From NCBI RefSeq assembly GCF_050920415.1, contig NZ_CP169309.1: a stretch of DNA of 64,000 bases. The stretch is one strand, 5' to 3'. This DNA comes from Escherichia coli. GTDB lineage: Bacteria; Pseudomonadota; Gammaproteobacteria; Enterobacterales; Enterobacteriaceae. Position 1 is the stretch's first letter, and each line of letters begins with the position of its first letter. Position numbers and translations under genes: made by a program. Below the pieces are notes generated by a model, which saw nothing but the letters and a program-made list of their open reading frames with translations, searched no databases and had not been told where the DNA came from. Positions 30,890 to 33,490 of the stretch are shown piece by piece.

Positions 30890-31036
30890 TCACACAACAC
30901 TCAGCCCACGGCAGTGGCACCACACTTCAAACATTCGTTTCACAATTTCACGACAGTAGAAACCGTCAACATCTCGCGTCAGGTCATAGCGATTGCCGTA
31001 ACGCTGGCGCACCCATAGCTCAAACGCTTTATTCAT
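30890..31036 (-). CDS. Small hypothetical protein (48 aa, below the ORF-track size cut-off)
   Basis: Hand-translated MNKAFELWVRQRYGNRYDLTRDVDGFYCREIVKRMFEVWCHCRGLSVV with an AAGGAAG RBS; fills a gap in the leftward operon. Confidence 0.35.
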   Translation of the reverse strand: MNKAFELWVRQRYGNRYDLTRDVDGFYCREIVKRMFEVWCHCRGLSVV

Positions 31037-31039
31037 TCT

Positions 31040-31282
31040 TTACTTCCTTTTCATGGCACGTAATTTTTTCAGATGAGCTTCCTGTTCTGTTTCTGCCAGA
31101 ATTTGTCGGTATTCCAGGTGATCGAGTCGTTCAAACATTTCATTAAAATCGTTTATTTTTACCGACTGTATTCGCCCATCCATTCTTCTGTACAACACGA
31201 TGTTATTTATGCAGCGAATAATTTTTACCGGGTAACCGGCACTGTTGGTATACAGTTGTCCCTGATTAATCAAAGCAAACAT
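31040..31282 (-). CDS. Hypothetical early-left protein (80 aa)
   Basis: Internal ATG (MFALINQGQLYTNSAGYPVK...) preceded by an AGGAG RBS; the longer ORF-track version would overlap the upstream gene. Confidence 0.5.
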   Translation of the reverse strand: MFALINQGQLYTNSAGYPVKIIRCINNIVLYRRMDGRIQSVKINDFNEMFERLDHLEYRQILAETEQEAHLKKLRAMKRK

Positions 31283-31313
31283 TTTTTCTCCTGCTCTCTG
31301 AATAGTGAGAACT

Positions 31314-31694
31314 TCAGAGCCGTATGTTTGTAGCGGGTTCAATACTGATAATTTCTGCTGAGATAAGCATCCCGGCAAGCCAGAGCTCTCCGGACAGGTC
31401 TTCATCCTGGCATGTCAGTTCGCCAATATTAATGGTAGCCATGATATCTGTTTCCCCTGTACGCTCATCCTCGACTTCTTCATAAGGCAGCGTTGCGTAC
31501 AGGCTTTCAATAGCGCAACTGATAACATCCAGTCCGGTCAGATTGCCGCCGACAGTAACTTCGAATGTTTCGCGGTATTTCCATAGCCCGAAAGTTAATC
31601 GAATGGTTTGTTTTGCCATGCGTCCGCATAACGTCAGATTTGGGTCATAGTTCATAACTTCAGATGAGATACATTGTGTCTCGATGCTATTCAT
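31314..31694 (-). CDS. Hypothetical early-left protein (126 aa, acidic)
   Basis: ATGA start/stop overlap with the upstream gene (31691..31972), indicating translational coupling. Confidence 0.6.
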   Translation of the reverse strand: MNSIETQCISSEVMNYDPNLTLCGRMAKQTIRLTFGLWKYRETFEVTVGGNLTGLDVISCAIESLYATLPYEEVEDERTGETDIMATINIGELTCQDEDLSGELWLAGMLISAEIISIEPATNIRL

Positions 31695-31972
31695 TTTGTT
31701 ACTCCTGATTTTTTTCGGATTACCTTTTTCAATTTTTTACCGTTATTCACGTTACAGTAAATTTCGGCAAGTTCGCGTGATAACATTATTTCTCCGCTAT
31801 TTTTATCTATAGCAATGTGATCGGGATTATCACGAATAAACTTCTTTATCATTGGCATTGCCATAAACTCTTCTGGCGTATAGATGCGTGTATGGCGGCG
31901 AACGTGTTTTATCACAGGTATTTTATGTTTTGATTCAACCTGAAATACATTAATTTTATTTTGATTTGCCAT
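31691..31972 (-). CDS. Hypothetical early-left protein (93 aa, basic)
   Basis: ORF in the leftward operon, AT-rich. Confidence 0.55.
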   Translation of the reverse strand: MANQNKINVFQVESKHKIPVIKHVRRHTRIYTPEEFMAMPMIKKFIRDNPDHIAIDKNSGEIMLSRELAEIYCNVNNGKKLKKVIRKKSGVTK

Positions 31973-31981
31973 GTGTAATAT

Positions 31982-32563
31982 TTAATGTGTTACTGGCGCT
32001 TCTGGCATACCATGAGTATTCAGGTCGTTAATCATTTCATCCAGAAGGAGTTCAAGCCCTTCGCGTCCCATAGCAGAAACAATGAAACCATTATCAGGAT
32101 CTGCGATGAGCATTTTTTGATAGAGAAACAGAACTCGCCCCATGCCTTCAGCTTCGCCATATTTTTCAATAAATCCCCATTCGACATGGTTTTGCAGGGC
32201 AATGCGAAGTGGTCCCGGGTAGATACTCAGGCAACCATGTTTCCCCTTGTAAATAACTGCGCGATCTGTCGTCCCGTTATCGTTAGGGATATTAATGGTG
32301 CCGTTCTTGTCTTCCTCTTCACTGATAAATTTCGCTACATACAGCCAGCGCCACTGAGCAACCTTCAGATCGACTGAAAATCTTCCCAGGAATCCGGCAT
32401 CATCGGCTTCCGCAATACATTGCATGATTCTTAAACCGTGCCAGTATGGATTGTCGTACTCACCATCATTAAGTCGCTGTACGGCCTCAACATAATCAAT
32501 GGTTGTATTGCCAATTTTTATGCCATGTGGCGTAACTTCTGGTTGGAACTCTGAATGATTCAT
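31982..32563 (-). CDS. Hypothetical early-left protein (193 aa)
   Basis: Start taken at MNHSEF..., which forms an ATGA overlap with the stop of the upstream 67-aa gene; no recognisable domain. Confidence 0.55.
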   Translation of the reverse strand: MNHSEFQPEVTPHGIKIGNTTIDYVEAVQRLNDGEYDNPYWHGLRIMQCIAEADDAGFLGRFSVDLKVAQWRWLYVAKFISEEEDKNGTINIPNDNGTTDRAVIYKGKHGCLSIYPGPLRIALQNHVEWGFIEKYGEAEGMGRVLFLYQKMLIADPDNGFIVSAMGREGLELLLDEMINDLNTHGMPEAPVTH

Positions 32564-32763
32564 AATGTTTGCTCCTTTGCTGGTGGAATAATCGTGTAGC
32601 CTGCTCTTTTTGCCATCCACAGAAATGTATCCATGCAGCCAACGAATTCATTATCCAGCAGATGTTTTGAGTAAATTACTTTTCCATTTTCAATGGTTAG
32701 CAACACTCTTACTTTTTCATGTGTTATGTTCAGTTGTTTTTCTTCCATTGACTTATCTCCCAT
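32560..32763 (-). CDS. Hypothetical early-left protein (67 aa)
   Basis: Small ORF translationally coupled to the downstream 193-aa gene. Confidence 0.45.
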   Translation of the reverse strand: MGDKSMEEKQLNITHEKVRVLLTIENGKVIYSKHLLDNEFVGCMDTFLWMAKRAGYTIIPPAKEQTL

Positions 32764-32944
32764 ATGCTTTGCGCAAATACAGGTTGGCTATATGAAGATA
32801 AGAATCTCCATGTTGTGCAATGAGGCAGGCAGTTTTATACGATGCCTTATGTTTCAGGAAAGTCATAACATAATCTCCTGCGAATAAAGGTTGCAACAAT
32901 CCCCGGCGATAAAACCGTAATAAACATTCAGGGAATATTTATTG

Positions 32945-33151
32945 TTATTGCGCTAATTCTTTTTCGGCAGCAGCTTTTGCATATTCACATGCAAAATTCA
33001 GAATTTCGCTGCCAAGTGTTTTTGTTTCGTGATTACTTGACATATGTAATACCTGTGTTGCATGCAATAAATGATAAACATTTACCGCAAATGAGTCAGG
33101 CTCCAGACAAATGCCTTCATAATCATCTTGTTGTGAGGTTGTTTCTGTCAT
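32945..33151 (-). CDS. Hypothetical early-left protein (68 aa from the internal ATG)
   Basis: MTETTSQQDDYEGICLEPD... preceded by an AGGAG RBS. Confidence 0.5.
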   Translation of the reverse strand: MTETTSQQDDYEGICLEPDSFAVNVYHLLHATQVLHMSSNHETKTLGSEILNFACEYAKAAAEKELAQ

Positions 33152-33490
33152 TGCTCCTGAAGTGCATGCGAGCCTGTTTTTGACAATTCTCTTTCCTCTA
33201 ATCACTATATCGGCAACATCTATTGCCTTTACAACCTCCGGGAGAAGTTCCGGGTTTGTATAATCAAAGTCATCAACATGGAGAACAGTTATGTTTTAGA
33301 ACTTTTTCATGGCTTCCTCAGCTGACTTATATGTTCTGCTATATAGCGAGTCTCAGAAGTGTTTTCATATTGAGACTGTTTCCTCAATGATTGATAATTA
33401 GTTACCGGATGCTTATCCGTGTCCGGCGCACGACCACACGTAGCCGCGTGTTGGTCTCCATTTACAATTCAGCTCTCAATGGAGGATAAA

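Follow-up and report, generated by a model that had tools for sequence, protein, structure and literature searches.

This report concerns a 64,000-nucleotide stretch of Escherichia coli DNA (contig NZ_CP169309.1), referred to below as the window, and within it a block of small minus-strand genes (30890-33205) that lies between the excisionase gene xis and the immunity region of a prophage. The int, xis, cI and cro-like genes in the gene map, together with the neighbouring yecE, identify the element as a lambdoid prophage at yecE. The block is the early-left accessory module of this prophage, which is of the phiP27 type and integrated at yecE. The stretch 30600-33500 aligns over 89% of its length to the Stx2e phage phiP27, with 96.7% identity. 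Some part of this stretch is matched by about a fifth of complete E. coli genomes (1174 of 5426) and by 37 phage records, many of which are Stx1- or Stx2-converting phages. It is 100% identical in E. coli MFDS1022581 (NZ_CP169399.1), which differs from the window by a 1-bp indel in cI, and whose sequence parts from it after about 37.3 kb. The region is already known, having been published with phiP27 and annotated in RefSeq. Its products are uncharacterised, as an original prediction made from the sequence of the window had held, and carry only hypothetical or DUF names in both places.

Gene map of the block

The original prediction placed seven minus-strand open reading frames (ORFs) of 45-193 aa between xis and the immunity region. 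All seven lie where it put them, but there are eight genes and not seven. The products range from 48 to 193 aa once the starts are corrected, or from 37 to 193 aa when the eighth gene is counted. All of the genes described in this section are on the minus strand; they are called P1 to P7 from the xis end, and the eighth is referred to as the 37-aa gene.

P1 (30890-31036) encodes a basic protein of 48 aa (isoelectric point, pI, 9.0) with three cysteines, which belongs to phrog_3871 (E 6e-36). It has the Shine-Dalgarno sequence AAGGAAG, and its stop codon lies 8 nt ahead of the xis start. P2 (31040-31282; 80 aa; phrog_285 and PF13973) is a DUF4222 protein and corresponds to phiP27 L03. Its maximal ORF of 121 aa (to 31405) was rejected as over-extended: the Shine-Dalgarno sequence AGGAG precedes the ATG at 31282, which is also the RefSeq start. 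P3 (31314-31694) is a DUF5406 protein of 126 aa, equivalent to phiP27 L04, with a pI of 4.05 and a net charge of -14. P4 (31691-31972) is a basic protein of 93 aa (pI 10.1), whose gene has 33% GC and no clear Shine-Dalgarno sequence, and which has no PHROG or Pfam family. P5 (31982-32563), the equivalent of L06 and a member of phrog_1515, is acidic (pI 4.8, net charge -13) and, at 193 aa, is the largest product, as was originally stated. P6 (32560-32748) has 62 aa, corresponds to L07 and belongs to phrog_340; an alternative ATG at 32763 would give 67 aa.

The gene that had been missed (32753-32866) encodes a basic peptide of 37 aa beginning MTFLKHKASYK, and has an AGGAG upstream. It fills an apparent gap at 32764-32944, and its stop lies 4 nt ahead of the P6 start. 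It is unannotated in RefSeq, and is annotated as a 114-bp coding sequence in PhiR49_2 and Stx1_14040. The peptide is 70-100% identical in five related phages, and is absent from Citrobacter-type relatives.

P7 (32945-33151; phrog_4587/5451) is an acidic protein of 68 aa (pI 4.6), with the Shine-Dalgarno sequence AGGAG, and is the C-terminal core of phiP27 L08. The remnant of the L08 N-terminal extension occupies 33152-33310. L08 has 121 aa in phiP27, PhiR49_2 and ASU11, in all of which codon 5 is GAA, while in the window codon 5 is TAA (33298-33296), a single G-to-T difference. The upstream ATG (33310) and its Shine-Dalgarno sequence (GAGGAAG) are intact in the window allele, and the 68-aa core keeps its own AGGAG. 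Because Stx phages encode only a 66-aa form, the core is taken to be the conserved unit of L08.

Shine-Dalgarno sequences of the AGGAG or GGAG type are found before P1, P2, P3, P5, P6 and P7, with none before P4. The starts that they support are the same as those in RefSeq, and trim P2 to 80 aa, P6 to 62 aa and P7 to 68 aa. Both of the ATGA overlaps that had been described are present in the sequence: one, at 31691-31694, joins the P4 stop to the P3 start, and the other, at 32560-32563, the P6 stop to the P5 start, through which P6 is translationally coupled to P5. The marked AT-richness of the block was also borne out, with 41.2% GC as against a mean of 50.0% (sd 4.1) for segments of equal size across the 64 kb. 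Only 3.8% of such segments reach so low a value, and the ten lowest all begin inside the block, at 31.5-32.7 kb. The AT-rich tract extends on across the immunity region (30890-35316, 40.9% GC).

Conservation and protein families

Genes L03 to L08 of phiP27 (NC_003356 / AJ298298) form an orthologous block, in which order and strand are the same, and which likewise lies between xis and the immunity genes L10/L11. At the protein level, P1, P2, P3, P5, P6, the 37-aa gene and P7 are 92-100% identical. The differences are that phiP27 carries L05 ('serine protease/lipoprotein') instead of P4, and has the full 121-aa L08. The same region is also present in phage ASU11 and in Stx1 and Stx2 phages integrated at yecE. 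The conserved order is cI, L10-type regulator, P7, (37-aa gene), P6, P5, a variable slot, P3, P2, P1, xis and int, and it is the same in Stx1 and Stx2 phages, PhiR49_2, ASU11 and a Citrobacter prophage. There are thus two conserved sub-modules, P7-(37 aa)-P6-P5 and P3-P2-P1, which flank one swappable slot. The slot is filled by P4 here, in ASU11 and in the Citrobacter prophage, by the SPFH-domain gene L05 ('serine protease') in phiP27 and Stx2 phages, and by Ea22, EaA, MarR and others in PhiR49_2 and Stx1 phages. Homologues of P4 make up only 10 clusters, from Escherichia and Citrobacter, and the ASU11 copy is 93.5% identical.

The ratio of nonsynonymous to synonymous substitution rates (dN/dS) was calculated by the Nei-Gojobori method against phiP27, ASU11, PhiR49_2, an Stx1 phage, an Stx2d phage, the Citrobacter prophage and a metagenomic contig. 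In full-length alignments it was 0.07-0.47 across all eight ORFs, with dS values of up to 2 or more. The individual ranges are 0.10-0.25 for P1, 0.16-0.38 for P2 (0.58 on a 41-residue partial match), 0.14-0.47 for P3, 0.13-0.29 for P5, 0.07-0.28 for P6, 0.07-0.13 for the 37-aa gene and 0.10-0.29 for P7. For P4, which was compared with a Citrobacter genome and a metagenome copy, the range is 0.13-0.16. Since these values are well below 1, it is concluded that all eight ORFs, P4 included, are protein-coding and under constraint.

Seven of the eight block proteins fall into PHROG or Pfam families (phrog_3871, 285, 3409, 1515, 340 and 5451/4587), whose functions are unknown. P2 residues 4-53 match positions 2-52 of the 53 in PF13973 (E 6.2e-13), and the identical RefSeq protein is named DUF4222. 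P3 matches phrog_3409 (E 2e-49) and has the RefSeq name DUF5406; PF17400 is precomputed for a sequence identical to P3 and, with a single exception, for the 73 homologues listed. The AlphaFold2 model of P3 is confident, and matches no known fold, inhibitor or DNA mimic. No Pfam match was found for P4, P5, P6 or P7, NCBIfam and PADLOC scans gave nothing for the block proteins, and searches of PDB sequences, with single sequences and with profiles, were empty. P6, which likewise lacks a Pfam or PDB match, weakly matches phrog_4792, an anti-repressor PHROG, in its C-terminal part (E 1e-3). A literature search gave nothing useful on DUF5406, the PHROG numbers or phiP27 L06.

Three further matches were set aside. 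The hit of P4 to ArnR in NCBIfam (17.9 bits, against a cut-off of 400) and that of P5 to DUF1980_C (E 0.15) are noise. The 90%-identity cluster of P1 has as its representative an 80-aa DUF4222 protein (P0061), which is a P2 homologue unrelated to P1 and an apparent clustering artefact of adjacent genes.

The original prediction saw no likeness of the block proteins to Exo, Bet, Gam, Erf, RecT, Kil or N, and none was found in PHROGs, NCBIfam, Pfam or PDB sequences. The block was also compared by blastp and phmmer --max with all of the proteins of the lambda pL operon (Exo, Bet, Gam, Kil, CIII, Ea10, Ral, N, Ea22, Ea8.5, orf60a, orf61 and orf63), and nothing better than E 0.1 was obtained. Kil, CIII and N show no similarity, and no block protein matches an antitermination PHROG. 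For the ERF and RecT families there is no PHROG or Pfam match in the block proteins, nor among the large early-right ORFs, and a scan of the large early and replication ORFs (35693-46054) found no recognisable recombinase. A Pseudomonas relative of the P3 neighbourhood carries ERF and SSB, so the ERF profile is detectable by the same search.

Relations of P7, P5 and P2, and the setting of the block

P7 can be aligned with residues 24-70 of a 153-aa regulator encoded nearby (33887-34348, minus strand), with 45% identity over 47 aa (E 2e-11), and the relation is backed by reciprocal PHROG cross-matches. Judged by sequence, P7 and the N-terminal domain of this neighbouring helix-turn-helix (HTH) regulator are paralogues. 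The same relation between P7 and the N-domain of the regulator recurs in PhiR49_2, an Stx2d phage and ASU11.

P5 gave a confident AlphaFold2 model (pLDDT 88, pTM 0.83, from a 21-sequence alignment). A Foldseek search of the model against AFDB50 returned its own family alone, as 'prophage protein' entries from Enterobacterales. The family is confined to Enterobacterales prophages and satellites. A profile scan of 1.84 billion representatives found 128 clusters, none of which brought an annotated relative; longer matches to the profile were rejected as read-through or frameshift fusions with neighbours, such as a primase zinc-ribbon. By tblastn, homologues were located in 36 phage records, including Stx1a, Stx2a and Stx2d phages and temperate phages of Klebsiella. 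The name '2-polyprenylphenol hydroxylase related flavodoxin oxidoreductase' given to Klebsiella P5 homologues (e.g. AFDB A0A2X3EJE2) has no Pfam or fold support, and looks like a propagated misannotation. P5 contains no nucleotide-binding or nuclease motif, and has no DNA-binding fold.

Distant P5 homologues (34-39% identity) occur in small elements of Serratia and E. coli that are not lambdoid prophages. The layout of these elements is int, AlpA, AntA, DUF4222, small ORFs, the P5-family gene, primase (Zn_Ribbon_Prim/Toprim_3/DUF927) and PerC. The P5 homologue precedes the primase by one to three genes, and in some elements there are tandem paralogues. An int-AlpA-...-primase-PerC layout is the described architecture of the satellites of E. 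coli known as phage-inducible chromosomal islands (PICIs). As both occur in satellite elements, the P5 and DUF4222 families are common to phiP27-type phages and PICIs. The AlpA-controlled early operon of PICIs of the EcCICFT073/EcCIMP1 type resembles the block in these two families and in its co-directional small unknown genes. The satellites differ in carrying AlpA, AntA, Ash, primase and PerC, and in lacking a cI/cro immunity region. A P6-like partner was searched for beside the satellite P5 homologues and was not found, the coupled genes there being unrelated to P6. In the satellite locus labelled L010 (also in L011 and L012), tandem P5 paralogues lie at 5001-5612 and 5624-6214, closely followed by a 114-aa gene and the primase, and the second copy is the nearer to P5 of the window.

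A DUF4222 protein with a described function is RgdR (ECs1581), a regulator from O-island 51/CP-933C of E. coli O157:H7, an element with the same architecture as the satellites (PMC3378721). RgdR activates LEE1 and represses motility, its DNA binding is weak and non-specific, and its RGD tripeptide is required for activation of type III secretion (PMC3378721). P2 shares the DUF4222 domain with RgdR, and both are small, basic and encoded by a mobile element. They differ in length (99 aa for RgdR, 80 aa for P2), in the RGD tripeptide, which P2 lacks, and in their location, P2 being in a lambdoid prophage and not in a P4/PICI-like island. It takes the Pfam profile to reveal the likeness between P2 and the satellite DUF4222 proteins, which phmmer gives only at E about 0.06.

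The block was correctly described as leftward, coupled and situated between xis and the immunity region, but it does not abut cI, from which three genes separate it. The first is the 153-aa regulator, an XRE-type HTH protein of the phiP27 L10 type (phrog_4836, E 1e-76, with the PHROG label 'CII-like regulator'), whose HTH is similar to that of P22 C2. The second, also on the minus strand, is an 82-aa gene (33648-33896; phrog_23054, E 2e-49), which is 99% identical in phiP27, overlaps the regulator stop by 10 nt, and is unannotated in the near-identical RefSeq record. The third is a convergent, plus-strand gene of 75 aa (33491-33718; phrog_20080), which at its 3' end shares about 70 nt with the end of the 82-aa gene. 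A promoter-like sequence precedes it at 33370-33398 (plus strand), its leader of about 85 nt holds two GC-rich hairpins (z -2.2), and its position inside a leftward gene string is like that of sieB in lambda. The descriptive part of the original prediction therefore stands, though it overlooked the phiP27 L03-L08 homology, the eighth gene, and the genes lying between pL and the block.

A sigma-70-like promoter sequence on the minus strand, TTGACA-17 nt-TAATAT (34430-34402), matches the consensus, and the regulator is the first gene downstream of it. It is followed by the palindrome ATCAATTATAACTTGAT, and related ACTTGAT half-sites recur in the cI-cro intergenic region. The promoter and palindrome are plausible as pL and oL. 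A terminator-like hairpin for cI lies ahead of the candidate pL, at 34482-34466. The cI-like repressor itself (34494-35189, minus strand) is an intact ORF of 231 aa with an HTH and an S24 peptidase domain. In NZ_CP169399.1 one C is missing at window position 34992, and cI is annotated there as two coding sequences.

On its left flank the prophage is bordered by the chromosomal genes torZ, cmoB, cmoA, yecN and yecE. A tyrosine integrase (29276-30589, minus strand) adjoins yecE, and xis (30645-30881, minus strand) lies between the integrase and the block. The early-right genes were annotated directly from the window sequence; the large ORFs there encode an Ant-like protein, two Ash/Rha-type regulators, O-like, DnaC-like and DnaB-like replication proteins and a Q-like antiterminator (41943-42308, found in the scan of early-right ORFs). 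The rightward early operon also contains a gene for a Lar-family restriction-alleviation protein of 70 aa (36544-36756, plus strand; TIGR03655, 49.5 bits against a cut-off of 39.6), and no other anti-restriction gene can be recognised near the immunity region. None of the block proteins matches the Lar/Ral restriction-alleviation proteins.

An Rfam search found no RNA family within the block. In the rightward operon it gave matches above the gathering score to the Hfq-binding small RNA isrK (36828-36904, plus strand, 58.8 bits) and to C4 antisense RNA (36929-37000, plus strand, 58.5 bits, cut by the end of the searched stretch). The two matches sit within or upstream of the Ash/Rha-type regulator genes, and suggest antisense control of an anti-repressor module in the style of phages P1 and P7. 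Between the Q-like antiterminator and the lysis genes there is a minus-strand ORF of 395 aa (42476-43663; phrog_17982, unknown function). This is the site at which Stx phages hold stx or other cargo, and the ORF is possibly a moron.

Function of the block

The reading that we prefer, with a moderate degree of confidence that belongs mostly to its descriptive part, is that the block is an accessory module, the counterpart of the lambda exo-xis region, and has a modulatory, protein-binding role. The role is favoured because of the family of P2, the paralogy of P7, the exo-xis-like position of the block, the dispensable look of its genes, and the presence of Ea22 and EaA in the swappable slot of relatives of this prophage. 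The exo-xis region of lambda and Stx phages is likewise a string of small leftward genes adjoining xis. Published accounts describe the exo-xis genes as early and non-essential, and as shifting lysogenization and induction (PMC3824215, PMC6213356, PMC7093339).

On this reading, induction would give rise to a leftward early transcript from the pL-like promoter beside cI (about 34430-34402), which would run through the block into xis and int. The products would be dispensable modulators acting by protein-protein contacts or by nucleic-acid contacts of low specificity, and, like the exo-xis genes, would adjust host gene expression and the choice between lysis and lysogeny, with no part in recombination. 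P2 may resemble RgdR in being a small basic co-regulator with pleiotropic effects. P7, as a regulator N-domain without the DNA-binding HTH, would pair with the neighbouring regulator and alter its activity. P6 and P5 would be co-translated and might act together, and P5 and P3 would be acidic binding proteins.

Several points weigh against this. The parallel with exo-xis, as far as sequence comparison can tell, is one of position and not of family: the block has no homologues of orf60a, orf61, orf63, orf73, ea22 or ea8.5, there is no exo, bet or gam upstream, and its families are DUF4222, DUF5406, phrog_1515, phrog_340, phrog_3871 and phrog_4587. P1, P3, P4, P5, P6 and the 37-aa peptide give no functional clue. 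P2 has no RGD anywhere in its sequence, which was read by itself and has RRMDGR around residue 35. An interaction of P7 with the regulator is something that we infer from their paralogy alone, and in phiP27 and Stx1 phages the P7 homologue stands beside a regulator with a different N-domain. Read-through from pL into the block is likewise inferred, because the regulator, the 82-aa gene and the 75-aa gene intervene, the last of them convergent and on the plus strand, and the analysis, which included no systematic search for nut sites, identified neither these nor an N-like antiterminator.

The original prediction took the genes as candidates for host takeover or anti-defence. In this form, inhibitors, most plausibly the acidic P3 or P5 or the slot gene P4, would block defence proteins encoded by the host or by prophages early in infection. 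We think this unlikely, if worth keeping in mind. The early leftward position, the AT-richness and a swappable slot are typical of accessory and counter-defence loci, and the net charges of P3 (-14) and P5 (-13) point the same way. The P3 and P5 families are widespread in temperate phages, P5 also in satellites, and confident models of no known fold, such as both proteins gave, are common among anti-defence proteins. The proposal is nevertheless a conjecture from position, AT-richness and acidity. No known anti-defence or defence-related family was matched, the searches covering anti-restriction and anti-CRISPR PHROGs, NCBIfam and PADLOC-associated families, with no dedicated anti-defence profile search made; among characterised inhibitors, Ocr, ArdA/B, KlcA, Ral/Lar, Gam and the anti-CRISPRs show no profile or fold similarity to the block proteins. 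Structure prediction did not bring out an inhibitor either, as neither the P5 nor the P3 model has a fold known from inhibitors or DNA mimics. The conserved sub-modules keep their synteny and evolve slowly (P5 dN/dS about 0.14), where an arms race would be expected to give rapid turnover, and the recognisable anti-restriction gene, of the Lar family, is in the rightward operon instead.

A more specific proposal, which we put forward as speculative and regard as doubtful, is that P7/L08 is a decoy that titrates or remodels the first regulator of the pL operon, and that P5/L06 is a currency of phage-satellite or phage-host interaction. The N-domain copy in P7, probably an oligomerisation domain, would then be a built-in anti-regulator of the lysis-lysogeny switch. 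P5 might be an early protein taken up by satellites, which would use it to time or imitate the functions of a helper; alternatively, it might inhibit a host factor that phage and satellite both must neutralise.

The satellite homologues could also be read as a sign that the P5 family and DUF4222 serve DNA replication, excision control or phage-satellite cross-talk. P5 homologues are indeed found upstream of primases in PICI-like, AlpA-controlled operons, some of them in tandem, and RgdR itself is in a PICI-type element. Adjacency within compact operons is, however, weak evidence, and P5 of the window belongs to the leftward operon, whereas the replication genes (O-like, DnaC-like and DnaB-like) are far away in the rightward one; with neither a nucleotide-binding or nuclease motif nor a DNA-binding fold in P5, we consider this quite improbable. 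Finally, the idea that the block is decaying, non-functional filler, made of chance ORFs in an AT-rich cryptic prophage, is almost certainly wrong: P7 is a nonsense-truncated allele of L08, P4 lacks both a Shine-Dalgarno sequence and a family, and the near-identical RefSeq strain has a frameshifted cI, but the idea is contradicted by the selection analysis (dN/dS well below 1 in all eight ORFs, dS up to 2 or more), and it does not fit the Shine-Dalgarno sites and coupled stops and starts, the confident AlphaFold2 models of two products, or synteny kept across Escherichia, Citrobacter and inducible phages.

What is new here, for a region already in the literature, is the eighth gene, the corrected starts, the truncated L08 allele, the paralogy of P7 with the regulator, two novel-fold predictions, and two families shared with PICIs. 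The practical value lies in the corrected gene map, with eight genes, revised starts and the truncated L08 allele. P5 with P6, P3, and P7 with the regulator form a shortlist for experiment, and the block would gain in interest from an experimental demonstration that P7 is a decoy or that the P5 family has a phage-satellite or counter-defence role.

That PICI satellites also have the P5 and DUF4222 families suggests that genes pass between satellites and helper-type phages, or that there is functional cross-talk between them. The same genes are carried by Stx1-, Stx2a-, Stx2d- and Stx2e-converting phages. A role in the timing of induction, if true, could therefore affect toxin release, and a counter-defence role, if true, could affect the spread of stx.

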